64,000 nucleotides of DNA from positions 576,001 to 640,000 of the forward strand of contig OY760175.1 in the NCBI GenBank assembly GCA_963663165.1, in the 5' to 3' direction. Both the position numbers and the translations under genes were made by a program. The notes under the pieces were generated by a model. The model saw only the letters and a program-made list of their open reading frames with translations. It searched no databases and was not told the DNA's origin. Origin of the DNA: an uncultured Desulfospira sp. (lineage in GTDB: Bacteria > Desulfobacterota > Desulfobacteria > Desulfobacterales > Desulfobacteraceae). Shown here one piece after another: positions 896-48,784 of the stretch (position 1 is its first letter; the number at the start of each line of letters is the position of its first letter).

Positions 896-1752
896 TGGAC
901 AGAATTATATTTGGCGATAACCAATTTTTTGGTGTAAACCACATGTCCGAACAGGCGTCAATCCGGCAGTCCCAAAAATACAGAACGCCGGGTGATATAT
1001 ATATGACCCTTGAATATGTGAATAAGATCGGCATCAAAACCTTTATGTTTACAACACATGATATGCTTGAACCTGTTTTTGACAAGATAAGAGAAAACGA
1101 GGAATTTTCTGATTTCAAGCTGGTTCCCTGTATGCCATATGCCCATAAATATGCAAATGCAATGGTTGAACAGGGAATTTTTGAGGCTGTGAATAAATTC
1201 GTACCGGGAAATAAGATCATTTCGGGTTTTAAAGGTTTGAAAGCAGCGGTATCATCAGATCCTGTACCGATTATGAAGTTGCTGGTAGATTCAGAGATGA
1301 AGCAGTTTAAAGGTTTGAATGTTGAGGCTGTTTTTTTACTCAATATTGTTACCGATCTTTTGATGGGTATGGGAATGCATAATATATTTTATGAATTTTC
1401 AAAATATGTTGAAGAACAATATGGAGTCAAAGCAGGTTTTTTTACAATGAACTATGTCATGCTCAAAGATATTCTGGTTAATAACTTGGGCATTGAAAAA
1501 CCATTGATTTGTTCAAATTTTAACAAAATTGGGTTCCGGATGAACCCCTCTAAAGCGGCGGTTGAAAAAAGCCTTAGAGAAAAGAACAGCTTCACCATTG
1601 CCATGTCCATTCTTGCATCAGGTGCAGTCAAACCAGAGGAAGCCGTAGAATATATCGGCAGTCTGGATGGGAATGTAGACGCAGTTTTATTCGGAGCTTC
1701 TTCCCCGGTGCACATCAAGGAAACCAAAGAGCTTTTAGAAAAAATGATATAG
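895..1752 (+). CDS. Hypothetical protein in polysaccharide locus (possibly aldo/keto-reductase-like barrel)
   Basis: 285-aa ORF coupled to upstream gene (TAATG overlap, GGAGG RBS); N-terminal IIFGDNQFFG and C-terminal AMSILASG...VLFGASS only loosely resemble AKR-like proteins. Confidence 0.55.
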   Translation: MDRIIFGDNQFFGVNHMSEQASIRQSQKYRTPGDIYMTLEYVNKIGIKTFMFTTHDMLEPVFDKIRENEEFSDFKLVPCMPYAHKYANAMVEQGIFEAVNKFVPGNKIISGFKGLKAAVSSDPVPIMKLLVDSEMKQFKGLNVEAVFLLNIVTDLLMGMGMHNIFYEFSKYVEEQYGVKAGFFTMNYVMLKDILVNNLGIEKPLICSNFNKIGFRMNPSKAAVEKSLREKNSFTIAMSILASGAVKPEEAVEYIGSLDGNVDAVLFGASSPVHIKETKELLEKMI

Positions 1753-1862
1753 ATGTCACGATCCTTTTGGTCTCTATTATAGGCTAACTCACAACAAAAA
1801 TTGAAAGTCCCGGCCTTTTTTACAAGGACTTTCATATTTAAATTTAAGAAAAGTCTGTCTTT

Positions 1863-3416
1863 ATGAAATTTTCTGATTCAATAAAATCCGGATATGTCAT
1901 TGTGATTGGTATCTACACGGTGCTGTGTATATTCCTTTATCAGTCTGCAGCAGCTAATCTGCTCAAATGGTGGAAAAAGGATGATTATTCCTATTGCTAT
2001 CTAATACCTTTCATTGTTTTATATCTGCTCTGGGAAAAGAAGAATTCCTTTGCTGTTGAAACTATCCGGCCTCAGTGGCGGGGGATGATTCCATTTTTAT
2101 TGGGCATTGTGTTTTACTGGCTCGGAGAGTTGGGAGGGGAGTTTTATTCACTTTATTTATCCTTCTGGCTGGTCATCTTTGGCCTTTGCGTTATGCTAAT
2201 GGGAATGGATAAAGTCAAAACCATTATCTTCCCTTTATGTATGATCTTTACCATGTTTCCGCTTCCCAATTTCATTAATAACAGGATTACCCTGCAACTG
2301 AAGATCCTTTCAACGAAACTTGGCGTGTTAATGATGCAGGCCTATGGCATGAGCGCGTACCGGGAAGGCAATGTCATAGATCTTGGCTTTACTCAGCTTC
2401 AAGTGGTGGATGCCTGTTCGGGCCTGAGATATCTGTTTCCAATGATTGTGCTAAGTATTCTGGTTGCCTATTTTTATCCGGCCCGGTTTTGGAAACGGCT
2501 TATTGTTGTTGTATCTTCGCTTCCTTTAACTATTCTTAGCAACAGTCTCAGGATTGCATTGACAGGGATTTTATCTGAAAAATTTGGTGCAAAAGTGGTG
2601 GAAGGGTTTTTCCATGATTTTGAAGGTATCCTGATATTTATGTTCACCCTTGGGATATTGCTTTTAGAAATCTGGATTATTAGGCTGATATTCCCTGAGC
2701 CTAAGAAAATTCAAGATGACACCTCGATTGTGGAAACTGAATTAGTTGAGGCTGTTGGAAAAGAAAAAGGGACATCTTTAAAATCGCCTAAGTTTGTTGT
2801 TTCTGTCGTTTTGTTGGTCTTGACAATTGGCTTGTCCCAAGGAATTGAATTCAGGGAAGCTATCCCTATAAGTCAGTCTTTTGATAAGTTTCCAAAGACC
2901 ATCGGGGAATGGAGCGGAGAGCGGCAATTGATGGAGAAAAGGTTCATTGATGAACTGGACCTGAGTGACTATTTCATGGCCGATTACAAAACTGGAGATG
3001 GAAAGGCAGTCAATTTTTATGTGGCCTATTATGAAAGCCAGCGAAAAGGGGAGTCTATCCATTCTCCGGCGACCTGTCTTCGGGGCGGGGGTTGGGATTT
3101 TAAACAGGCCGGGAGCCGGAATATTACCCTGGAAGATGGAACGGTCATGCCGGCAAACCGGGCTTTGATTGAAAAGGCACCGGTTAAGCAATTGTCTTAC
3201 TACTGGTTTCCCTGCCGGGGACGGATTTTGACCAATGCATATCAGATGAAAATTTATAACTTCTGGGATGCCCTGACACGGCAGCGGACGGATGGGGCTT
3301 TGGTCCGGGTGATTACACTGGTGTATGAAGATGAAACGATAGAAGATGCTGAAAAACGGATACAGGGGTTTATTTCTGATGTTCAGCCGGTGTTGCGGAC
3401 TTTTTTGCCGGAGTGA
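1863..3416 (+). CDS. xrtD: Exosortase with C-terminal EpsI domain (XrtD-like)
   Basis: Multi-TM N-terminal half with VVDACSGLRY catalytic Cys motif, NSLRI and FHDF; EpsI-type C-terminus (YYESQR..SIHSPATCL, RTDGALVRV). Subtype D inferred from architecture and neighbours. Confidence 0.8.
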   Translation: MKFSDSIKSGYVIVIGIYTVLCIFLYQSAAANLLKWWKKDDYSYCYLIPFIVLYLLWEKKNSFAVETIRPQWRGMIPFLLGIVFYWLGELGGEFYSLYLSFWLVIFGLCVMLMGMDKVKTIIFPLCMIFTMFPLPNFINNRITLQLKILSTKLGVLMMQAYGMSAYREGNVIDLGFTQLQVVDACSGLRYLFPMIVLSILVAYFYPARFWKRLIVVVSSLPLTILSNSLRIALTGILSEKFGAKVVEGFFHDFEGILIFMFTLGILLLEIWIIRLIFPEPKKIQDDTSIVETELVEAVGKEKGTSLKSPKFVVSVVLLVLTIGLSQGIEFREAIPISQSFDKFPKTIGEWSGERQLMEKRFIDELDLSDYFMADYKTGDGKAVNFYVAYYESQRKGESIHSPATCLRGGGWDFKQAGSRNITLEDGTVMPANRALIEKAPVKQLSYYWFPCRGRILTNAYQMKIYNFWDALTRQRTDGALVRVITLVYEDETIEDAEKRIQGFISDVQPVLRTFLPE

Positions 3417-3525
3417 GAAATGGGATATGAGACTTGGGATTTGGGGTATGGGGTGTTGGGTTTCGCTGCGCTCTACCCAACCTACGGGTTGCGGTTATGT
3501 TACAAACAATATGCGCCATTGATTA

Positions 3526-3554
3526 TTGAACAATGAGGCTGTCATCTGTATATT
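3526..3554 (+). promoter_or_regulatory. Putative sigma70 promoter of first TA pair
   Basis: TTGAAC-17 bp-TATATT followed by AAGGAG RBS before ATG 3576. Confidence 0.5.
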
Positions 3555-3575
3555 CAAATAAAAAAAGGAGATGAC

Positions 3576-3809
3576 ATGGAAGGCATATCAGAAAAAATAT
3601 ATGAACAAGCAATCAATCTTCCCATAGATGAACGGCTTATACTTATAGATAGGTTGCTGATTAGTACCAATTTACCGACTCAAAAAGATATTGATCTGGC
3701 ATGGTCAGCCGAAGTTGAACGCCGTTGCCAAGCACTTGACCGTGGAGAAGCAAGACTTATCTCCGGAGAGGAGGTCTTTGAAAAAATTCGGAAGCGATTT
3801 TCAAAATGA
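3576..3809 (+). CDS. Addiction module antitoxin (TIGR02574-like)
   Basis: 77 aa, LPIDERLILIDRL...AWSAEVERR...GEEVF pattern; ATGA overlap with downstream toxin. Confidence 0.8.
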   Translation: MEGISEKIYEQAINLPIDERLILIDRLLISTNLPTQKDIDLAWSAEVERRCQALDRGEARLISGEEVFEKIRKRFSK

Positions 3810-4093
3810 GATTCAGCTTTCATGAAATTGCTGAAAAAGAATTTATTGACGCCATTGAATATTACGAAGAATGCCAGGCCGGGTTAGGCTTGAGATTCTC
3901 TGAAGAAGTTTTCGCCACAATTGAACGAGTATGTGAGCATCCATATGCTTGGACAGGGATTGATGCAAAAACCAGGCGTTGCCTCACAAACAAGTTCCCG
4001 TACGGAATTCTTTATCGGATAGTTAACAACCACATCAGGATTATGGCGGTAATGCATCTGCATAGAAAGCCGGACTACTGGAAAAGTAGATAA
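3806..4093 (+). CDS. RelE/ParE family toxin
   Basis: 95 aa, AEKEFIDAIEYY...RRCLTNKFPYGILY...IMAVMHLHRKPDYW typical of ParE-like toxins. Confidence 0.85.
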   Translation: MRFSFHEIAEKEFIDAIEYYEECQAGLGLRFSEEVFATIERVCEHPYAWTGIDAKTRRCLTNKFPYGILYRIVNNHIRIMAVMHLHRKPDYWKSR

Positions 4094-4302
4094 AAAGTGG
4101 CGGTGTAAATGAGGTGCTTGAATATATTAAACTGAATCCTGGGAAAAATACACGGCAGATACAGCAGGCGTTAAATATTCCTCGAAGAACTTTGGAGCGG
4201 ATGCCAAAAGAACTGAGGGATAAGAAGTCGATTGAGTTTCGGGGAACCCCTAAAGTTGGTGGTTATTTCTTTGTTATTGAGGTATCAATGTCATTAACTT
4301 AA
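4094..4302 (+). pseudogene. Orphan C-terminal winged-HTH fragment (end of a Fic or ATP-binding-type protein)
   Basis: Reads KSGGVNEVLEYIKLNPG...IPRRTLER..KEL....IEFRGTPKVGGYF, a C-terminal wHTH tail, with no N-terminal domain. Confidence 0.55.
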
Positions 4303-4493
4303 GCATCGAGGATGTTATTTGCAGGTCTCCTTTGAATTTAGAAGATTTAAAAATGCCACCAGGAAATATGTTCGAGGCACTAAAGGGAGACCGAAAAGGG
4401 ACTTATAGTATACGAATCAATGATCAATATAGAGTCTGTTTTAAATGGTCAGAATCGGCCCCTGATTTTGTAGAGATAACCGACTATTATTAA
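4281..4493 (+). pseudogene. higB: HigB (plasmid maintenance killer) toxin, N-terminally damaged; not in ORF track
   Basis: Manual translation LNLEDLKMPPGNMFEALKGDRKGTYSIRINDQYRVCFKW...VEITDYY*; in-frame TGA just before 4281 and the RBS-associated ATG at 4288 is in another frame. Confidence 0.8.
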
Positions 4494-4494
4494 T

Positions 4495-4641
4495 TAGTGT
4501 TTGAACGAAAAGTCACCCATCTGCTGTGTTGCAGGAAAAGTTGCAATCCTCACAACCCCATGGTTGCTCCGGTTGCAACTTTTCCTGCGCCTTGCATCTG
4601 GGCAACTTTTCGTCCAAACACGGGTTTCCGTTCAGGCACTA
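4495..4641 (+). mobile_element. MITE-like element, copy 1 (between higB and higA)
   Basis: Imperfect terminal inverted repeats TAGTGTTTGAACGAAAA / TTTCCGTTCAGGCACTA, TA at both ends, long internal inverted repeat; second copy at 40809-40979. Confidence 0.75.
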
Positions 4642-4655
4642 ATTATGAGGTGAGT

Positions 4656-4973
4656 ATGATTAGAATACCAACACATAGAGAGCCTACTCATCCAGGCGAA
4701 ATGCTAATTGAAGAGTTTTTAACCCCGATGGGAATAATCCAAAAGGAACTGGCAAATTCAATACATGTTCCATATCAAAGGGTTAATGAAATTGTAAAAG
4801 GTAAGAGAGGCATAACGCCGAGCACAGCCCTTCGATTGGCAAAATTTTTTGGAATCTCGGAAGATTTCTGGATGAATTTACAATTAAGATGGGATTTGTA
4901 TCAGGCAAAGTTAACTGAAAGTAATGAACTGAAAAATATTAAAACCTACTGCGTACCCGAGTTACAGTCATAA
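4656..4973 (+). CDS. higA: HigA family antitoxin (XRE-HTH)
   Basis: PTHPGEMLIEEFL...VNEIVKGKRGITPSTALRLAKFFG.SEDFWMNLQ; start ATG 4656 after GAGGTGA (track start 4497 lies inside the MITE). Confidence 0.9.
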   Translation: MIRIPTHREPTHPGEMLIEEFLTPMGIIQKELANSIHVPYQRVNEIVKGKRGITPSTALRLAKFFGISEDFWMNLQLRWDLYQAKLTESNELKNIKTYCVPELQS

Positions 4974-4981
4974 AATAATAT

Positions 4982-5092
4982 GCCCAACTACGCGATATAT
5001 CGATTATTGTTACCAGGAATGGCAATGATTTTAGAGGGTCTGAATTGGATGTTTATTCACCCGAAACGTTTGTTGAGCGTTATGGGAAGTGA
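4982..5092 (+). pseudogene. C-terminal fragment of a PIN-domain protein; not in ORF track
   Basis: Manual translation DISIIVTRNGNDFRGSELDVYSPETFVERYGK* matches the IVTRNxxDF...VxSPxxF PIN tail. Confidence 0.65.
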
Positions 5093-5122
5093 GGTAATGG
5101 GGGCTCTTGATTTAGATTACTT

Positions 5123-5305
5123 GAACGACAACCGACAGACTGAGCTTTGATCCGGGTGATTATCCTGGTGGAATCCACTGATGATGCTGAAAGAAGGGGG
5201 CAGGGGTTTATTTCTGATGTTCAGCCAGTGTTGCGGACTTTTTTGCCGGAGTGAGAAATGGGATATGGGGTGTTGGGTTTCGTTGCGCTCTACCTAACTT
5301 ACGGG
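5123..5305 (+). repeat. Diverged direct copy of the exosortase 3' end plus downstream REP (partner 3277-3488)
   Basis: Translates RQPTD*ALIRVIILV-ESTDDAERRGQGFISDVQPVLRTFLPE* versus RQRTDGALVRVITLVYEDETIEDAEKRIQGFISDVQPVLRTFLPE*. Confidence 0.92.
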
Positions 5306-5429
5306 GTTACACAAAGTGGTCCGACTACATAGAGTGTGGTCATGTTGACAAAATGATCTATATTAATGATATATTAGGTATTGAAGGAATAGAAACCGTA
5401 ATGAACAATTTATTCTTGAGAGCTGATAC

Positions 5430-5705
5430 ATGCCCGAGCGAATAATACATATAAATTCCCCGGTAAAAGAAAATATTCTACTGTCAATAAAAGAAACAAA
5501 GGATGAATTCACAAAAAACGTTCTGTTTTTATCTGCGTTACATTTCTATAGGAATCGGCGTTTATCATTAGGGAAGGCGGCCGAGTTGGCAGGTTACACA
5601 AGAATTGAGTTTATCGAGAGACTCAAACAGGAGAAAGAATATATTTTTGATTATAGTGATGATGAAATGGATGAAATTTTTTCCGACGCAAAAAAGATAA
5701 AATGA
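5430..5705 (+). CDS. UPF0175 family antitoxin-like protein
   Basis: ALHFY....LSLGKAAELAGYTRIEFIERL motif; ATGA overlap with next ORF. Confidence 0.8.
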   Translation: MPERIIHINSPVKENILLSIKETKDEFTKNVLFLSALHFYRNRRLSLGKAAELAGYTRIEFIERLKQEKEYIFDYSDDEMDEIFSDAKKIK

Positions 5706-5896
5706 AGATTGTGTCGAATACCACGCCAATTATCTCTTTAGCCTCAATCGGGCAGCTTAATATATTTTTGTTAATTGCCAAAGAAAAGAATATAATCAAA
5801 TCCACAAAGCCATTGCTTGATGAGATGATTTCAAAGGGTCGATGGTATTCAAAAACGGTCTATCTACAATTTCTTGAACGGGCCGGCGAGATGTAG
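5702..5896 (+). pseudogene. DUF3368-type PIN protein with large internal deletion
   Basis: N-terminus MKIVSNTTPIISLASIGQL joined directly to C-terminal LLIAKEKNII....LLDEM...G.W.S..VY..L..AGE; 64 aa, PIN core absent. Confidence 0.75.
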
Positions 5897-6044
5897 ATTT
5901 ATTCACTTTTTATGGGATTTCCTGTTTTAATATCAAAAAAACCAAGAGCATGAAACATATCTTGCTCGGAGCGGGCTATGTCCGCGAATCGCGGGCATGG
6001 CCCGCTCCTACCCAAATTGGTGTTTATTTTTCTGTTATTGAGAT

Positions 6045-6310
6045 AGATGGGAAGCCGGAATGAGAACCGGGACATGGGACTTGGGGCTTGGATTCAACCC
6101 CTTCGGGATTTCATGGTTTTAAACTACAGAGGGCACGGAAGGTTTGGCTTGCGCTAAACTGCACAGAGGGTGGGGCCGGCGTCGATAGTCCGGCTACAAG
6201 AGGGTGTTCATGATGATAAAGGGAACGGATAGATATCAGGGCATTAAGATGCTTTGTTTACAAAAGTGTCCGACTGGCGCATCTTGGTGTGTATAGGGAG
6301 GTGTATGATG
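6045..6310 (+). repeat. Leader repeat L1 (promoter, RBS and ATG of a TA pair)
   Basis: Aligns along its length with 7079-7310; contains TTTACA-17-CATCTT (6257-6285) and GGGAGGTG RBS. Confidence 0.92.
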
Positions 6311-6661
6311 AAAACAGGCATTGCCGATTCCGTCAAAATAAATGACAAATACGCTCAGATTTTATCAACCTTTGACGTTGATTTGCAATCTGCGGTTGAT
6401 GATGCGCTACAAAAGTATTTGATTGAGCAGATAAGAATAAAAATCGTTACCTTGAAACAAAAAGTCAGCGTTTTTAAAAAAAAATATGGATGTGATTATG
6501 AAACATTCCATAAAAAAATATCAGAGGATGAAGCATATGTGAATCAAGTTGAATGCAACATTGATAAAATGTGGGAAACCGATCTGTTTGAGTGGGAATT
6601 ATGCCATAAAGGGATTAAGGATTGGACAGATCAACTTCAGAATGTTTTGATAATGTTGTAA
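6308..6661 (+). CDS. Hypothetical antitoxin-like protein
   Basis: Start after GGGAGGTG (ATG 6305 or 6308); FKKKYGCDYETF...DLFEWE pattern seen in small TA partner proteins; overlaps next ORF. Confidence 0.55.
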   Translation: MKTGIADSVKINDKYAQILSTFDVDLQSAVDDALQKYLIEQIRIKIVTLKQKVSVFKKKYGCDYETFHKKISEDEAYVNQVECNIDKMWETDLFEWELCHKGIKDWTDQLQNVLIML

Positions 6662-7014
6662 AAGCTGCGCACCAAATTTTTCAAGAACTTGATTATGATC
6701 TGGATGTGACACCTGTCCGGTCAATATTAAATATCAAGTGCCGGTATGGGGCATATACGGTTTTTATTTCAGAATTGTTCAGCGACAATACACGAAAATA
6801 CAGTTATTATGTGTTACATGAAAATTGGGTTGAAGCCGGCTTTGACAATGCGCCGGATCCCAGGGCTATTCGGCTCAAATATGGTAGAATTGGTAAAGAG
6901 CATGCCGGACAGAATATTTCCCATTTACATCTGGAAAATAAAACAAAAATTGAGTTAACTCCTGAAATATCATTTTTTGATTTCGTTGAGTGGATTCAAA
7001 ATAACCTTTCTTAA
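6622..7014 (+). CDS. DUF6516/TumE-like putative toxin
   Basis: RKYSYYV.....AGFDNAPD......SHLH resembles the YxY...DNA...HxH signature; family call tentative. Confidence 0.5.
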   Translation: MDRSTSECFDNVVKAAHQIFQELDYDLDVTPVRSILNIKCRYGAYTVFISELFSDNTRKYSYYVLHENWVEAGFDNAPDPRAIRLKYGRIGKEHAGQNISHLHLENKTKIELTPEISFFDFVEWIQNNLS

Positions 7015-7078
7015 GATAGCTGTTCAATCTAAAGTTCTTGGGCTTGCAAAGGCAGAGACTGCTGACCACCGCAGAGCC

Positions 7079-7310
7079 AGATGGGAAGCCGGAATGAGAA
7101 CCGGAACATGGGACTTGGGCTTGGATTCAATCCCCTTTGGTATTTCATGGTTTTAAACCACAGAGGACACCGAGGTTTGGCTGTCGCCAAACTGCACAGG
7201 AGGGTGTTCATGATGATAAAGGGAAGGGACAGATATCAGGGCATTAAGATGCTTTGTTGACAAAAGTGCTTGAGTGGCGCATCTTGGTGTGTATGGGGAG
7301 GTGTATTATG
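7079..7310 (+). repeat. Leader repeat L2 (promoter, RBS and ATG of vapBC)
   Basis: Copy of 6045-6310 lacking a ~34-bp segment; TTGACA-17-CATCTT at 7257-7285. Confidence 0.92.
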
Positions 7311-7508
7311 AGAACCAATGTAGTATTAGATGACCGGTTGATTCAGGAGGCCCTGGCCTTAAGCGGATTAAAAACTAAAAAAGATATTATTTCAATGGCA
7401 CTGCAGGAATTTGTTGATTCCCGGAAAAGGAAAAACTTGCTGGAACTTTCGGGGAAAATTGAATTCCGCCATGATTATGATTATAAAGCCCTCCGACAGG
7501 ACAAATGA
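7308..7508 (+). CDS. vapB: VapB family antitoxin
   Basis: MRTNVVLDDRLIQEALALSGLKTKKDII..AL.EFV motif; ATGA overlap with PIN toxin. Confidence 0.85.
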   Translation: MRTNVVLDDRLIQEALALSGLKTKKDIISMALQEFVDSRKRKNLLELSGKIEFRHDYDYKALRQDK

Positions 7509-7891
7509 TACTTGTCGATACGTCAGTTCTGATCGATTTCTTTAAAGGTGTTTCAAACCCCTCAACCGATAGCTTAAGAAGGATTATTGAACAGCAGATT
7601 CCCTTTGGGATTACCTCTGTCATTTATCAGGAAATTTTGCAGGGGGCCAAAGATCGAAAAGAATATAATCTCTTGAATGAATACCTGGAATGCCAAAAAT
7701 TTTTTCATCCTTTAGACCTGATAGGCTCTTATGCGCAAGCCGCTATAATATATTTTTCCTGCAGAAAAAAAGGAATCACCATTAGAAGCACAATTGACTG
7801 CCTGATTGCTCAAGTTGCTATTGAGCATGGCCCGCTCCTACCCAAAATCAAAATCGGTTTCAAGATTCGTTACAAATTGTGCATAGGATAA
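7505..7891 (+). pseudogene. vapC: VapC PIN toxin, C-terminus replaced at a REP junction
   Basis: MILVDTSVLIDFF...EILQG...STIDCLIAQVAIEH, then homology stops at 7825-7830 where REP sequence begins; the final HxDxDF-type acidic motif is missing. Confidence 0.75.
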
Positions 7892-7918
7892 GGGAGATTG
7901 GTCCGGCGTTGCTGAACC

Positions 7919-8323
7919 TTATTCCCAGTCTTCAAGAATGAGGCCGGATATCCGGATGAATTCCCGGGTATTATGGGTAACGAGGACCGCATCATGGGCG
8001 CGGGCAATTGCGGCAATAAGCATATCATTGGGGCCGATCAGGTTGCCCTGGGCTGTCAGATCGGCTCTGATAAGACCGTATTCATCCGCACATTGATCAT
8101 CAAAGGGCAGGCTTTGCAAAGGGGCGAAGAACAATCTTAAGGCTTGAAGGTTGGCATCTACCCGGTTGCTGTTTCTTGCACCGAAAAGCAGCTCAGCTTT
8201 AACAATACTACAGACCGCAATTTCGGAAGGGGAGCTGGTGCGAAAATGGTGTTCAACAGATTGAGATGTGCCGTTAAGAAAATTGATGCAGACGTTGGTA
8301 TCCAGAAGAAACATTTTATTCAA
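7919..8323 (-). CDS. vapC: VapC PIN toxin (intact)
   Basis: LLDTNVCI...KAELLFGA...IGPNDMLIAAIA...LVTHNTREF.RI.GL.LEDW. Confidence 0.9.
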   Translation of the reverse strand: MNKMFLLDTNVCINFLNGTSQSVEHHFRTSSPSEIAVCSIVKAELLFGARNSNRVDANLQALRLFFAPLQSLPFDDQCADEYGLIRADLTAQGNLIGPNDMLIAAIARAHDAVLVTHNTREFIRISGLILEDWE

Positions 8324-8540
8324 ACCCTGTTCTTTGTTCTATATCTAATTGATCCGGTCGGACGAGGGGCTCTCCCTGCCATGATCCGGCCAGGTCAAAA
8401 TAATTTTCCGGCCAGTCATTGATGGTCTCTTTTTTTACGAGATAGGCCAAATATTTTGAGGTGGACAATCCGGCCTCCTTGGCTTTTTGTTTAAACAGGA
8501 TCGCCAGATTGTCCGGTATGTAACAGTGTAATTGCGCCAT
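8316..8540 (-). CDS. Antitoxin (ribbon-helix-helix-like)
   Basis: MAQLHCYIPD...KAKEAGLSTSKYL; GGAGGA RBS before ATG at 8540; overlaps vapC start. Confidence 0.75.
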   Translation of the reverse strand: MAQLHCYIPDNLAILFKQKAKEAGLSTSKYLAYLVKKETINDWPENYFDLAGSWQGEPLVRPDQLDIEQRTGFE

Positions 8541-8762
8541 GTATTCCTCCAAATATATTTATTGTATGTGTTTTTTATGGTAATGAAATGTTCAGGGTGT
8601 GTCAAGTCTGGTGAGCATGCTTTTTGTGGCCGTGGTCTGTTAGCGAATTTTGGCTTATTTAATTTGTCGTTCAGGCCGGTGGATTGGCCGTTAGATGGTG
8701 GGCAGCGCTTCGCTTTTGCCCACCCTACGGCGCCAACAATAACTATAAAATATAGATCATAG

Positions 8763-10403
8763 ATGAATCTGTTTACTGTTTTTATCCTGTCGTTGTTTTT
8801 GACCATCGCCCTGGTGCCGGTGTTTAAGCGCCTGGCATTCAGAATGAATATTGTGGATGTGCCCAATGCCCGAAAGGTCCATGCGGTTCCCATGCCCAAG
8901 ACCGGGGGGATATCCATGGCCCTGGGGGCCTTTATCCCCATGCTGCTCTGGCTTCCCCGGGACCCTTTTGTCAGTTCTCTGTTTATCGGGGCCGGCATTA
9001 TTGTTGTTTTCGGGGTGATTGATGATATCAAAACCCTGGGAGCCATACAGAAATTTGTCCCCCAGATTGCCGCCACCGTGATTGTGGTTGTTTTCGGGGG
9101 GGTGAGGTTTACCTGTTTCGGGGATCTGCTGCCCGCATCCTGTACGCTGCCGGCATATCTTTCCATTCCCTTTACCGTGTTTGCCATTCTCGGGGTAACC
9201 AATGCCATTAATTTGGCGGACGGACTGGACGGCCTTGCCGGCGGGATATCCATGCTCAGCTATATTCTGATTGTTTTTCTGGCATTGAACTGCGGCAATC
9301 ATAGTGTGGCCATTATTGCCGTTGCCATGGCAGGCGGGATTGCCGGGTTTTTAAGGTTCAATACCCATCCGGCGGTGTTGTTTATGGGCGATGCCGGCAG
9401 CCAGCTGCTCGGATTCGTTTTGGCCGTGCTGGTGGTGGCCCTGACCCAGGCCAATACGCCGTATGCCAAGATTCTGGGCCTGCCGCTGATCGGGTTTCCG
9501 ATTCTGGACACCCTGACGGTGATGTCCGAACGGGTCATAAAGGGAAAATCTCCCTTTGCAGCCGACAAAAACCATTTTCATCACCGGCTGCTCCGGTTTG
9601 GTTTTTTTCATACCGAAGCCGTACTGCTGATCTATATCACCCAGGCCCTGTTTATGATCATGGCGTTGATCTTCCGGTTTTATTCGGACTGGTTTTCCTT
9701 TTTGGGCTTTGTGTCCCTGTCCCTGTTGATTCTCCTGGTTTTCTTTATAGGGGGCAGGGTGAAGTGGAAATTTCGGAGGGAGGGCACTTTTGACTCCGTG
9801 GTGAAACGGCGGCTGAAAACCCTGAAAGACCAGAAGCTGTTTATCCGGACTTTTTTTGGGGGGATACGGTTTGGGTTTCCCCTGGTATTCGGATGCCAGG
9901 CCCTGGTGCCGGTTAAAATTTCCATGCTGGTTTCTGCAATTGCCGCCGGGTTAATGGCTGCCACCGGTATTACCTATTTTTTTGACTGGTCAAGATACCG
10001 GCCCGTTTTATTGCGATTTTCGGTTTATATTTTGGCGCCGCTGACCTTGTACGCCGCTGAAAACGACGCCGGGATCTGGATGACCGAATTTTGGTTAACC
10101 GTGAATAATCTCGGGTTTATTGCCTTGATTTTATTTGTGATCATGACCATGAACCTGACACGGCGGCGGCAGGGATTCAAGGTAACGCCCATGGATATCC
10201 TGGTGTTTATCGTTATCCTGGTATTTCCCAATTTGCCGTCTGTTCATTTTGAAGCCTACCATGCCGGTATGGTGTTGGCCAAGGTGCTGGTGATTTTGTA
10301 CAGCTATGATGTGTTGATGGGAGAGCTTCGCCATGATACAGAACGGATGGTTTTGCCCATGATGATCGCTTTAGGGGCGTTTGTGGTTCGGGCATTGGTG
10401 TAA
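8763..10403 (+). CDS. MraY/WecA family undecaprenyl-phosphate sugar-1-phosphate transferase with extra C-terminal TM region
   Basis: DVPNARKVH..PMP.TGG, GVIDD, NAINLADGLDGLA, LFMGDAGS, DKNHFHH motifs. Confidence 0.9.
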   Translation: MNLFTVFILSLFLTIALVPVFKRLAFRMNIVDVPNARKVHAVPMPKTGGISMALGAFIPMLLWLPRDPFVSSLFIGAGIIVVFGVIDDIKTLGAIQKFVPQIAATVIVVVFGGVRFTCFGDLLPASCTLPAYLSIPFTVFAILGVTNAINLADGLDGLAGGISMLSYILIVFLALNCGNHSVAIIAVAMAGGIAGFLRFNTHPAVLFMGDAGSQLLGFVLAVLVVALTQANTPYAKILGLPLIGFPILDTLTVMSERVIKGKSPFAADKNHFHHRLLRFGFFHTEAVLLIYITQALFMIMALIFRFYSDWFSFLGFVSLSLLILLVFFIGGRVKWKFRREGTFDSVVKRRLKTLKDQKLFIRTFFGGIRFGFPLVFGCQALVPVKISMLVSAIAAGLMAATGITYFFDWSRYRPVLLRFSVYILAPLTLYAAENDAGIWMTEFWLTVNNLGFIALILFVIMTMNLTRRRQGFKVTPMDILVFIVILVFPNLPSVHFEAYHAGMVLAKVLVILYSYDVLMGELRHDTERMVLPMMIALGAFVVRALV

Positions 10404-10478
10404 GGTTTCAGGCTGAAGGTTTTTAGACTGAAGGTGATTAGATAGGTGGTGGGCACAAACAGCGTGCCCACCCTACGG

Positions 10479-10556
10479 CTCATGCGAAGGCGCAAAGGCA
10501 CAAAGCTTCATTGCATAAGCGTTATTAATCTTTGCGGCTTTGTGTCTTTGTGTGAG
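10479..10556. repeat. Inverted array of 8-mer repeats (GCRCAAAG ... CTTTGYGK)
   Basis: CTCATGCGAAGGCGCAAAGGCACAAAG pairs with CTTTGCGGCTTTGTGTCTTTGTGTGAG. Confidence 0.65.
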
Positions 10557-10605
10557 AACATAAAGATATGATAACTCGTTGATAAAAAACTTAAAGGAGC
10601 ATTTG

Positions 10606-13011
10606 ATGAAGGCTATTCTTTCAAAAAATTCGATTTTTCTTCTTGTCATTATGCTGTTTGTGTCCGTTCTTAACGGCTGCGGCAGCCCCGATGATAAAAA
10701 ACAGGCCTTTCTTGACAAGGGGAACGCATTATTTGAGGAAAAAGATTTTGTAAAAGCCAAGCTTGAATATAAAAATGCCATCCAGATTGACCAGAATTAT
10801 GCCCAGGCATATTTCATGCTGGGCAAAACCGAACTGGAACTTAAGAATTTCAAGCAGGCGTTCGGCATGCTGTCCAAGTCCGTTGAGCTGGCCCCGGACA
10901 ACATTGAGGCCAGAACCATTCTGGGCAAGCTGCTGCTGGCCGGAAGGGCGCCGGACCAGGCCCTGGAACAGGCTGAGGCCATTCTGGCCGTAGATAAGGA
11001 GAACCTGGACGGCAACCTGTTAAAGGCATCGGTCCTTTTTGCCCAAAAAGAGTACCTCCGGGGTGAGGAAATTCTCATGGGCCTGTATAAGTCCGGCGCG
11101 ACCTCGCCTGAATTATACGCCCTGCTGTCTTCCGTGGCCCGCCTTCACCAGGACCCGGAACAAATGCGGGCCTATCTGAGTGAAGGAATTGAAAAGAATC
11201 CGGACAATGTTCCGCTCAGGCTGGGGCTTGCCCAGCTTGAGGCCAATGAAAAGCATTTTGATGCCGTGGAGGAAAATCTCTTGAAGGTGATCGAACTTAA
11301 GCCCGATCAGGTTTCCCACCGGCTTAACCTGGCCAAGCTGTACATTAATCAGAACCAGATGGACAAGGCCGAAGAGCTGTTTAATCAGATTCTGGAACAG
11401 GACAGTGAAGATGAAAAAACCAGGATCAAAATTGCAGCGCTCTGGATCGCGTCTAAAAATCTTGAAAAAGCGGAAAAGCTGATTAAGGACGGATTGAAAT
11501 CCCATTCCGACAGTTTTGAATACCGGCTGTTTCTGGCCGAGGTGTATGCCAAAACCCGGCGGCTTGACGAATCCGAATCCATATTGAAAGAAGCCTTGGG
11601 GCTGAATCCTGATCCGGCAAATCCGGGCATCATCCGGACCAAGGTGGCCCTTTCCAGGGTATGCCTGGCCCGGGCCAAAGTGGCTGAAGGGGAAAAGCTC
11701 ATTGACGAGGTTATTGAGAATGACCCCAAAAATGTGGATGCCCATTTTATCAAGGGCAGAATTTACCTGTCCAGAAAAGACGGCGCCAATGCCGTGCCTG
11801 AGCTGAGGCTGGTCACCGAAGACCGTCCTGAAATGGTTCAGGGCTATTTAAGCCTTGCCCAGGCCCACTTACTGAATAAGGATGTCGATCTGGCCATGAA
11901 TGTCCTGGAAAATGCCCATATCAAACTCCCCAAAGAGGCCGCCCTTCTCAAGGCAATGGCCCGGTTAAACCTGGTTTTGAAAAAACCTGAAGCTGCAGAG
12001 AAAAACCTGCAGGCCGCCATTGAAGCCAACCCGGATAACCTTCAGTCCTACATTGACATGGGCGATTTTTACCTGGCCAGAAAATCATATGACAAGGCCC
12101 TTGCCCAGTACAACCTGGTCAAGGAGAAAAAGCCCGACAATGCAAGGGGATGGCTTAAAGCGGCATCGGTTTACACCGCCCAGGAGGATAACGCCTCCGC
12201 CATCAAAGAGCTCAAAGCCGGCTATGCGGCCAATCCGGATGCGGCATTGATTTTGGCCGGGCTTGCCAACCTGTATATTAAGGAAAAGCATTTTGATGCG
12301 GCCATGAAGCTGTGTACGGACCGGCTGGATAAGAACAACGAAGAAGCCTTTACCTGGAACCTTAAGGGGGGAATTCACCTGGCCAAAAAAGAGTTTGAGC
12401 TGGCCCAGACCGGATTTGAAAAGGCCACTGAACTGGCCCCGGAATGGGGAAAGCCCTATGAGAACCTGGCCCGGATTTATCTGATCCGCGGGCAGAAAGA
12501 TGCGGCCATTGAAAAATTCTCATCTGCCCTGGAAAAAAATCCCAAAAACCGGTCTGCCTGGATGATCCTTGGCAGTATTTATGAAAAAGACAAGGATTAT
12601 GAAAAGGCGGCCCGTACCTATGAAGATGCGTTTAAAAACAATCCGCAGCTGTGGCCGGCAGCCAATAATTTTGCGTTTATCCGGTCTGAATCCGCGGCTT
12701 CGGAACATGACCTGCAATATGCCATGGAGTTTGCAACCAAGGCCGAAGCGCTTAAACCCGGGGCCGGGGTGATTCTGGATACCGTGGGATGGCTTCATTT
12801 TAAACTCGGCGATCTGGACGAAGCCTATGCCAAGGTCAGCCAGGCCCTTGAGGAACATCCGGACAACAATATCATCAATTACCATATGGGAATGATCCTG
12901 GATAAGCAGGGAAAGACCGAAGAGGCAAAAATTTACCTTGAAAAATCCCTGTCGTCTGATAAAGACTTTCTTGGAGCTGAAGACGCCGAAAAACGACTCA
13001 AAGAACTTTAA
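10606..13011 (+). CDS. TPR-repeat lipoprotein (PrsT-like, PEP-CTERM/EPS system)
   Basis: AAGGAG RBS, signal peptide with LNGC lipobox, continuous TPR repeats, C-terminal ILDTVGW...INYHMG. Confidence 0.85.
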   Translation: MKAILSKNSIFLLVIMLFVSVLNGCGSPDDKKQAFLDKGNALFEEKDFVKAKLEYKNAIQIDQNYAQAYFMLGKTELELKNFKQAFGMLSKSVELAPDNIEARTILGKLLLAGRAPDQALEQAEAILAVDKENLDGNLLKASVLFAQKEYLRGEEILMGLYKSGATSPELYALLSSVARLHQDPEQMRAYLSEGIEKNPDNVPLRLGLAQLEANEKHFDAVEENLLKVIELKPDQVSHRLNLAKLYINQNQMDKAEELFNQILEQDSEDEKTRIKIAALWIASKNLEKAEKLIKDGLKSHSDSFEYRLFLAEVYAKTRRLDESESILKEALGLNPDPANPGIIRTKVALSRVCLARAKVAEGEKLIDEVIENDPKNVDAHFIKGRIYLSRKDGANAVPELRLVTEDRPEMVQGYLSLAQAHLLNKDVDLAMNVLENAHIKLPKEAALLKAMARLNLVLKKPEAAEKNLQAAIEANPDNLQSYIDMGDFYLARKSYDKALAQYNLVKEKKPDNARGWLKAASVYTAQEDNASAIKELKAGYAANPDAALILAGLANLYIKEKHFDAAMKLCTDRLDKNNEEAFTWNLKGGIHLAKKEFELAQTGFEKATELAPEWGKPYENLARIYLIRGQKDAAIEKFSSALEKNPKNRSAWMILGSIYEKDKDYEKAARTYEDAFKNNPQLWPAANNFAFIRSESAASEHDLQYAMEFATKAEALKPGAGVILDTVGWLHFKLGDLDEAYAKVSQALEEHPDNNIINYHMGMILDKQGKTEEAKIYLEKSLSSDKDFLGAEDAEKRLKEL

Positions 13012-27988: not shown

Positions 27989-28063
27989 TGGAGCGGGAAA
28001 CGGGATTTGAACCCGCGACTTCGACCTTGGCAAGGTCGCACTCTACCACTGAGTTATTCCCGC
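27989..28063 (-). tRNA. tRNA-Gly (GCC)
   Basis: Reverse complement GCGGGAATAACTCAGTGGTAGAGTGCGACCTTGCCAAGGTCGAAGTCGCGGGTTCAAATCCCGTTTCCCGCTCCA folds to a cloverleaf with encoded CCA. Confidence 0.97.
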
Positions 28064-48686: not shown

Positions 48687-48784
48687 TGGCGGAAGCACAT
48701 GGGAATCGAACCCACCCGGGACGGTTCTAACGCCCCACATTGGATTTGAAGTCCAAGGGCCCCACCAGTGAGCCGCGTGCTTCC
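48687..48784 (-). tRNA. selC: tRNA-Sec (UCA)
   Basis: Reverse complement GGAAGCAC...TTGGACTTCAAATCCAA...long variable arm...GGGTTCGATTCCCATGTGCTTCCGCCA; UCA anticodon, extended acceptor stem, G discriminator. Confidence 0.95.

Follow-up and report, generated by a model that had tools for sequence, protein, structure and literature searches.

A toxin-antitoxin gene array beside an exosortase gene of Desulfospira, probably assembled by repeated insertion with long target duplication

How can an array of toxin-antitoxin (TA) pairs accumulate beside a core gene when no integrase is encoded there? The question is raised by a locus in a stretch of 64,000 nt from an uncultured Desulfospira sp., called the window below. 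The array is located between the gene of an XrtD exosortase, with which a variable polysaccharide cluster ends on the right, and a WecA-like gene, and it consists of TA pairs plus several 3' gene remnants. A preliminary description had interpreted it as an integron-like but mechanistically different array that grows by insertion at the 3' junction of the exosortase gene. The features are listed with their coordinates in the window; G001 is the genome of a close relative from the same genus, and J1 to J4 are the junctions.

1863..3416, + strand: live gene of exosortase XrtD, EpsH fused to an EpsI domain (TIGR04152, 601 bits, cut-off 400)
3278..3488, + strand: J1, left copy of a ~210-bp duplication, with the last ~46 exosortase codons, a heptamer tract and a REP-like half (74% over 211 columns to 5125-5305)
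3576..4093, + strand: block B, addiction-module antitoxin and ParE, both intact (PF09720, PF05016; 516/518 identical to G001)
4095..4285, + strand: 3' remnant of an AlbA_2/RecG-C/HTH gene, from its internal GGVN repeat onward (tblastn to the full-length gene L108)
4286..4493, + strand: HigB toxin lacking its 5' part (PF05015 positions 41-81 of 91; open frame of 70 aa)
4491..4645, no strand: palindromic MITE-like repeat between higB and higA (>100 genome hits)
4656..4973, + strand: HigA antitoxin, intact (TIGR02607, 105 bits, cut-off 47.7)
4994..5124, + strand: 3' remnant of the block A PIN toxin and a short linker to the exosortase copy (112/128 identical to G001)
5125..5305, + strand: J2, exosortase 3' end (residues ~471-517) as a decayed copy, with heptamer and REP-like half (109/130 to the live gene; tblastn 72%)
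5430..5896, + strand: block C, intact UPF0175 and DUF3368 with a large internal deletion
5959..6062, + strand: REP-like palindrome, then a second AlbA/HTH 3' tail, the stop of which is the 6054 motif
6045..6315, + strand: J3, left copy of a 272-bp leader (79.8% to 7079-7315; 33 hits for the region)
6308..7014, + strand: block D, a 117-aa partner of no family and a TumE-like toxin, both open (698/707 to G001)
7079..7315, + strand: J4, right leader copy, serving block E
7308..7846, + strand: block E, intact VapB and truncated VapC (PF09957, PF01850, NF047959)
7919..8552, - strand: block F, small putative antitoxin and intact VapC (NF047863, 147.7 bits, cut-off 140)
8695..8729, no strand: REP-like repeat ahead of the downstream core gene (20 genome hits)
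8763..10403, + strand: WecA/MraY-family glycosyltransferase, the conserved right flank (PF00953; TIGR02380 below cut-off; 91.9% to G001)

Six TA pairs are indeed present, as had been reported, but of their toxins three are broken (HigB, DUF3368 and the VapC at 7505) and there are five toxin families, since VapC occurs twice. The DUF3368 protein, identified by visual inspection and from its UPF0175 partner with no Pfam hit, has 64 aa compared with 158 aa in its likely paralogue. The VapC of block E breaks off at about residue 108, where short homology joins it to a REP-like scrap, and its counterpart in G001 is an intact gene for 133 aa. Likewise, the remnant at 4994..5124 reads the same as the C-terminus of the PIN toxin of block A in G001, where this toxin is intact. 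The match of the block D toxin to PF20126 was below the cut-off (E = 0.0078), with ESM Atlas TumE clusters at 0.92, and the antitoxin candidate of block F gave a weak NikA-like hit only. An Rfam scan of positions 1500-11000 returned no match, and a promoter scan with 17 sites versus 13.3 ± 3.8 in shuffles was uninformative.

According to the preliminary description, four blocks start with one motif, the end of the exosortase gene. Exact copies of the 23-mer are located at 3407 and 5245, the P-E-stop reading is found at all four positions, and the copy at 6054 matches 3407-3444 at 31 of 38 positions. The interpretation held for 5245, which belongs to a long exosortase copy, but not for 6054 and 7088, which consist mainly of an AlbA/HTH tail and repeats. 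Within the 40 nt upstream of the motif, 39/40 positions agree with the live gene at 5245, compared with 11/40 at 6054 and 6/40 at 7088, where at most ~13-15 nt can be derived from the exosortase gene. The four junctions do not represent one motif, and the sole substantial exosortase copy is that at 5125-5305. The 6054/7088 pair is a separate duplication of 272 bp, made from the tail of an AlbA/HTH gene and genome-wide repeats; the J3 leader is composed of this tail, a heptamer tract, a piece of a ~30-copy repeat, a ribosome site and a start codon. The 31/38 match mostly reflects the heptamer tract, which is found 269 times in the genome. Since the 15 nt ahead of the 6054 tract match the exosortase gene better (12/15) than those of the next best tract (10/15), a short exosortase stub above background is indicated, inseparable from the native end of the preceding AlbA/HTH gene. 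The proposed decrease of similarity in the distal copies is weak, with 38-mer scores of 31 at 5245, 31 at 6054 and 29 at 7088. Direct repeats longer than 30 bp around inserts shorter than 20 kb are provided by J1/J2 (211 bp) and J3/J4 (272 bp).

The reported lack of an integrase in the array was borne out, with no match to a tyrosine recombinase or a Y1 transposase in the window. Repeats near the integron integrase gene of this genome, taken for attC sites, were rejected as such; by their motif we presume them to resemble group II intron 3' ends. No convincing attC site was recognized in the array either, as in the preliminary description: the scan, run without a positive control, gave one weak core-site pair away from the junctions (4982-5078, -7.5 kcal/mol). 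The blocks might be integron cassettes (CALIN) served in trans by the IntI encoded at C1:4194663 (456 bits, over the cut-off), and TA cassettes are common in integrons according to the available part of PMC2654758. Yet the duplications, of 210-270 bp, consist of host sequence and IntI lies 3.6 Mb from the array, not adjacent to it, which makes this origin extremely improbable. Like integrons and tRNA-anchored islands, the array is TA-rich, variable and accumulates on one side; unlike them, no attC, attI, adjacent integrase or tRNA was found in it, and long variable host duplications form its bounds.

The gain and loss of blocks at the junctions, on which the preliminary description depended, were seen in the comparison with G001. 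The array of G001 differs in content and order, with five motif-like copies, an intact block A between two copies of the exosortase end, and block B after a J2-type copy, while it follows J1 here. Third-position differences amount to 1/174 in block B and 2/249 in block D, compared with 97/547 in wecA. A monotonic age gradient along the array was rejected on the grounds of 0/79 third-position differences in the block F antitoxin and of an identity gradient that is not monotonic. The upstream cluster has little collinear homology (about 21 kb here, 42 kb in G001) and the downstream DNA is ~92% identical; TA genes and local duplications exist at the left border of the cluster as well (C1 551-559 kb). 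An empty interval was found in distant relatives only, with no empty allele seen in the same genus, and the order of events is not unique because the array is known in only one close relative. Searching metagenomes yielded no exosortase above 68% identity, except a 43-residue piece at 72%, and no close strains. Excision of J1-J2 or J3-J4 was not among the joints listed for the probable source run (contigs of four runs; contigs drop rare forms).

Is the exosortase gene itself the target? A dedicated integron-like system, adding cassettes at its 3' junction by a site-specific mechanism, would fit the confinement of the motif to this locus: the 23-mer has four genomic hits at up to 4 mismatches, three of them in the array, and among the GTDB species genomes, a set that may lack the genome of the window, a degenerate motif pattern found only the G001 locus with its motif-like copies. 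The 6054 stub and the 11 of 31 exosortase-wecA-type intervals longer than 500 bp, nine of which contain TA or defence-like cargo, point in the same direction. However, 20 of the 31 intervals have 300 bp or less, no exosortase stub occurs in the seven filled clade-A intervals of relatives (clade A being the XrtD clade of the live gene), and J3/J4 is mainly a different duplication. The exosortase 3' end is duplicated as one long copy here and as copies of 45 nt and 140 nt in G001; across genomes, stub lengths are about 140, 85, 45 and 27 nt (the last two read by eye). Because the lengths vary this much, a fivefold spread, insertion was not site-specific, and no fixed crossover point in the exosortase gene was found. 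With the same anatomy at unrelated genes, described below, a dedicated system is very unlikely. By tblastn, a clade-A stub was detected at 3/9 loci with a live clade-B exosortase and at 1/22 with clade A, and a fourth was recognized by eye at a clade-B locus, i.e. displaced 3' gene ends lie behind the replacing allele.

Islands that carry an integrase typically leave a displaced 3' fragment as their scar. The locus could hence be a graveyard of islands that targeted the exosortase 3' end and brought a spare gene end, with only the TA genes left, and many tyrosine recombinases are indeed encoded elsewhere in the genome. Still, an integrase match is absent from the window and from the 43 selected ORFs scanned in nine larger intervals of relatives, including G001; together with the variation in stub length and with the small inserts elsewhere (0.7-2.8 kb), three of which have clean empty sites, this renders such a graveyard quite improbable.

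Turning to the rest of the genome, near-unique direct repeats of 40-500 bp flank 10 of the 59 TA loci outside the array, about one in six, compared with 67/3967 ORFs of at least 200 aa, a control unmatched for accessory-gene status, and 112/5000 random points (Fisher p about 1e-7; for inserts up to 2.5 kb, 6/59 versus 16/3967). The 49/59 TA loci lacking such a repeat count against the explanation favoured below. A first scan for 3'-end copies had shown no 3' bias (29 downstream, 21 upstream, many 5' copies) and was replaced by the near-unique-repeat test because it was swamped by multi-copy repeats. The inserts mostly hold little beyond a TA or defence pair and no mobility gene. In G001, three of six hand-picked loci lack the insert and carry a single repeat copy (with overlaps of 97, 104 and 432 bp), two are filled too and one has no syntenic match. 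An empty site may also originate by loss between repeats. Since the host genes include EamA, enoyl-CoA hydratase, ComF-like, Tex and others, and the anatomy occurs in another genus (L142), it is not exosortase-specific, and the proposed mechanism aimed at the exosortase junction was not supported.

We consider it probable that several insertions with long target duplication took place at the seam where a polysaccharide cluster was swapped, and that the resulting array was reshuffled at the repeats by recombination and trimmed by deletions. The right seam of this swappable cluster would be a hotspot for horizontal transfer, built by host recombination with no dedicated integrase. Small TA blocks would enter with 50-450 bp of target on both sides, leaving the host gene whole; the anatomy of this step is observed, and its enzymology is inferred. 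Two such insertions, into two different targets, would be represented by block A, flanked by J1 and J2, and by block D, flanked by J3 and J4. The duplicated ends may then have served as homology for exchange with relatives, moving and reordering blocks, as block order and identity suggest. Finally, older genes would lose their 5' parts and toxins would be broken through one-sided displacement and short-homology deletions, with 3' stubs and intact antitoxins as the residue.

The likeliest route would be that a recircularised fragment is integrated by a single RecA-dependent crossover, or that taken-up DNA undergoes homology-facilitated illegitimate recombination. Genes of the ComEC and DprA families exist in all three genomes of the genus, which says little because they are common in control genomes too (ComEC 10/14, DprA 11/14). 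The rate of such events in E. coli, 1e-9 to 1e-10 (PMC3240628), counts against it. Moreover, several junctions lie ~5-40 bp from a TA stop codon and block D begins with the start codon that the duplicated leader provides; random ends would predict less tightly placed junctions, which argues against insertion with long target duplication.

Junctions beside repeats and near stop codons would be accounted for if a Y1/HUH (RAYT-like) transposase, acting in trans, nicked the REP-like or heptamer repeats and thereby started insertions or excisions. REP-like, heptamer or MITE-derived pieces occur at every junction, the genome has 14 Y1 matches, and in genus g3 blocks are delimited by the ~30-copy element, which is present as a single copy at empty sites. 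We regard this as unlikely, however: the long duplications elsewhere are mostly unique host DNA (in a test that kept only near-unique pairs), the window contains no Y1 gene, and the repeats are scattered genome-wide with TA cargo not shown for them. Also rather unlikely is the idea that TA pairs of Desulfospira and relatives are themselves mobile units with a specific route, perhaps a trans-acting HUH nickase or toxin damage. They would insert near gene ends with duplications of 50-450 bp, sometimes as promoterless TA genes fused to the start codon of a resident leader, and the duplicated ends would be reusable landing pads for integrase-free, integron-like arrays.

Restriction-modification genes are known to be inserted with long target duplication, as described by Furuta, Abe and Kobayashi in 2010 (PMC2853133, available part); work by Nobusato from 2000 is cited on this subject as well. 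Common to both are an addictive unit, the lack of a mobility gene, long variable host repeats, a single copy at the empty site and enrichment over average genes. The array differs in that its cargo comprises type II and IV TA pairs and that events were stacked at one hotspot and reshuffled later; also, the double-strand-break argument made there for restriction enzymes cannot be extended to the majority of its toxins. Because the cargo is TA and not a restriction-modification system, the array is a variant and not a strict member of this class. For the T6SS effector-immunity arrays of Vibrio cholerae, sequential displacement by homology-facilitated illegitimate recombination was proposed (PMC5361080, available part, where Rhs orphan arrays are cited). 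These arrays are similarly integrase-free and polar in an integron-like manner, with 3' ends shifted back, protective genes kept and toxins lost; they are, however, anchored on the very gene of an exported toxin, whereas here an unrelated core gene anchors unrelated intracellular TA pairs. Together with PMC3240628 and PMC5635113, these two studies provide precedents for the process. Hotspots of horizontal transfer that lack mobility genes (Oliveira 2017, PMC5635113, available part) share the fast turnover between conserved flanks, the lack of an integrase and recombination in the flanks, but flank double crossover alone does not make duplicated gene ends as seen here. The available part of PMC3874152 mentions long target duplication for restriction-modification systems only, and that of PMC2654758 not at all. 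Among the papers listed in searches on long target duplication with TA cargo, GxxExxY repeats, REP/RAYT with TA and exosortase with TA, which covered few subscription papers and no supplements, none dealt with such insertion of TA pairs.

The array is no evidence for a new exosortase-targeting system. Integrase-free insertion with target duplication is a known but unexplained route of gene gain, which was also observed at unrelated genes of this genome and of which the TA cargo here represents a variant. The exosortase array is its stacked form and illustrates the formation of an integron-like array without an integrase. So far, it is poorly understood how solitary TA pairs reach a chromosome when they have no carrier element. 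With about one sixth of the surveyed TA loci bearing the scar of long target duplication, and matched empty sites in a close relative, the process becomes countable across genomes and testable in culture. If TA pairs were themselves mobile, solitary chromosomal pairs could spread without any carrier element.

The array of toxin–antitoxin (TA) pairs occupies the interval 3417-8762, flanked by an XrtD exosortase gene (TIGR04152 over cut-off) and a WecA/MraY-family gene. It is AT-rich, with a GC content of 41% compared to 50% for the genome, and holds six TA pairs:

Block B: addiction antitoxin/ParE
HigB/HigA pair
Block C: UPF0175/DUF3368
Block D: unassigned partner and a TumE-like protein (Pfam below cut-off; ESM Atlas 0.92)
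Blocks E and F: two VapBC pairs

The toxins of 3/6 pairs are broken while their partner antitoxins are intact, and among the gene remnants are two AlbA/HTH tails as well as the 3′ ends of a PIN gene and of the exosortase. The motif counts of the preliminary description were correct on recount. It had also noted a missing integrase, and profile and tRNA searches indeed yielded no tyrosine-recombinase, Y1-transposase or tRNA matches within the array. Genes for tRNA-Gly (27989-28063) and tRNA-SeC (48687-48784) lie away from it. A palindromic MITE-like element with >100 matches across the genome sits between higB and higA (4491-4645).

By alignment, the four junctions (J1-J4) are two separate duplications, one pairing J1 (3278-3488) with J2 (5125-5305; 74% over 211 columns), the other pairing J3 (6045-6315) with J4 (7079-7315; 80% over 272). 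The exosortase 3′ end was duplicated as proposed, since the 40 nt 5′ of the motif at J2 match the live gene at 39/40 positions. The proposal that one motif is shared by all four junctions did not hold: J3 and J4 form their own duplication and match at only 11/40 and 6/40 positions. Throughout, the DNA 3′ of the motif is a genome-wide repeat, made up of a heptamer tract (269 such tracts in the genome), REP-like halves and part of an element with ~30 copies. In the same-genus relative G001, an AlbA_2/RecG-C/HTH reading frame ends with the J3-like motif, and a full-length relative has a similar native end. The 15 nt 5′ of the J3 tract match J1 at 12/15 positions, the top value among all other tracts (runner-up 10/15), which speaks for the preliminary description; a short exosortase stub at J3 is plausible. 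Several junctions lie within ~5-40 bp of a TA stop codon, and D begins where the duplicated leader has its start codon. Two unrelated TA pairs (leaders 6045-6315 and 7079-7315) have a common leader that runs to just beyond the start codon, which looks as though the frames had been exchanged at the ATG. In run X1, contig depth was ~190 left of J4 (1000-7180) and 134 right of it (7153-11000), a step that may reflect GC bias, strain mixture or amplification.

The exosortase of G001 belongs to a different clade (B) and is 31-33% identical to the clade-A enzyme of the window. It is followed by a 45-nt clade-A stub, intact block A (antitoxin and PIN), exosortase residues 471-517, B, an HTH tail, D, intact E, the last DUF3368 codons, AlbA pieces, an extra VapBC, F and wecA. 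The junction of A to exosortase is common to both genomes, the window copy being more decayed and placed after HigA; B follows J1 in the window and a J2-type copy in G001. Content and order therefore differ, in line with the suggested turnover of blocks at junctions. Third-position differences amount to 1/174 in B and 2/249 in D versus 97/547 in wecA, which points to recent lateral exchange of B and D. The F antitoxin is likewise near-identical, hence the pattern is a mosaic rather than a clean gradient. Little collinear homology was found upstream of the array (~21 kb in the window, ~42 kb in G001); downstream, the DNA is ~92% identical. Two public runs, which may be the source of G001 and are not independent, contained contigs with the G001-type joint; pieces that match the window allele exactly were also present, at low depth. 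At another locus (L179:1688-2153), identity to G001 reaches 99% in a nucleotidyltransferase TA gene but is 88-95% in its flanks; recent TA exchange is therefore not confined to the array.

Among 47 loci examined, both exosortase and wecA were present in 31, with intervals of ≤300 bp in 20 and >500 bp in 11. According to a Pfam scan of 43 ORFs picked from these loci, the 11 long intervals carry TA or defence-like genes in nine cases, and an MBOAT gene in one; the remaining one gave no Pfam match. A clade-A C-terminal fragment was detected by tblastn in 3/9 clade-B loci and in 1/22 clade-A loci, namely the window; a fourth clade-B locus has a 27-nt stub, read by eye. From these survey results, the interval is a family-wide hotspot, in which stubs of unequal length mostly follow the replacement of an allele. 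In the GTDB collection, which may lack the genome of the window itself, a degenerate form of the junction pattern occurred solely at the G001 locus. At L105, L107 and L108, blocks between exosortase and wecA (PDDEXK_3, VapBC, AlbA) are each bounded by a ~60-90-bp repeat, present as one copy in the short intervals of L109 and L115. Two full-length tandem clade-A exosortase genes lie 5′ of wecA in G004 (L047:14359-17411), and three tandem AAA-ATPase/PDDEXK_9 genes occupy the interval in G003 (L048:6297-11131).

Self-comparison of the window's genome yielded 435 local direct pairs; 68 of them were 40-500 bp long and near-unique. Such near-unique pairs straddle 10/59 TA loci outside the array (from an incomplete TA census), 67/3967 ORFs and 112/5000 random points; with inserts limited to ≤2.5 kb, the values are 6/59 for TA loci versus 16/3967 for ORFs. 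As the ORF control consists mostly of core genes, this enrichment may mirror accessory genes in general. Further cases beyond the 59 include YefM/YoeB, AbiEi/AbiEii, DUF4160/DUF2442, Fic and an AAA_21 pair. For six hand-picked loci, empty sites were sought in relatives, and at three of them G001 lacks the insert and has a single repeat copy:

AbiE at EamA, 97 bp
AAA pair at a ComF-like gene, 104 bp
VapBC at enoyl-CoA hydratase, 432 bp

At two others both genomes carry an insert, and the sixth has no syntenic counterpart. With the same anatomy at these and other genes, the process is not exosortase-specific as first supposed. In another genus (L142), an AlbA gene is flanked by 286-bp repeats (97% identity), followed by MazEF. 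On contig C1, the left border of a swapped polysaccharide cluster (551-559 kb) is TA-rich (PIN, ParE, two nucleotidyltransferase genes) and has several local duplications. Also on C1, ~16 repeats that resemble the 3′ ends of group II introns (4179-4189, 1861-1887, 2944, 3148 and 5573-5577 kb), several just 5′ of PIN or HigB genes, cluster beside the genome's only IntI.

Together, the array and the other loci exhibit duplications of long and variable extent, empty sites, reordering, recent exchange and 3′ stubs, and they lack a mobility gene. Entry probably occurs when a recircularised fragment integrates through a single crossover, or else by homology-facilitated illegitimate recombination. 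For conjugation in E. coli, PMC3240628 reports duplications in 56/60 such recombinants, measuring 109-950 bp in the 14 sequenced, a range that overlaps the sizes in this genome. The duplicated repeats would then serve RecA as a landing pad. Deletions breaking the toxin first would be tolerated, as general TA logic has it. The junctions near TA stops and the start of D at the leader start codon lie outside what this entry accounts for.

Insertion with long target duplication is known for RM genes that no further mobile element accompanies, with flanking repeats enriched (PMC2853133), integrase-free displacement arrays were likened to integrons by their own authors (PMC5361080), and many hotspots are without mobility genes (PMC5635113). 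The cargo published in the first is RM genes, whereas here it is TA pairs; an incomplete literature search found no paper with TA pairs as cargo of such insertions. By sequence comparison, the array is a real and dynamic TA hotspot.
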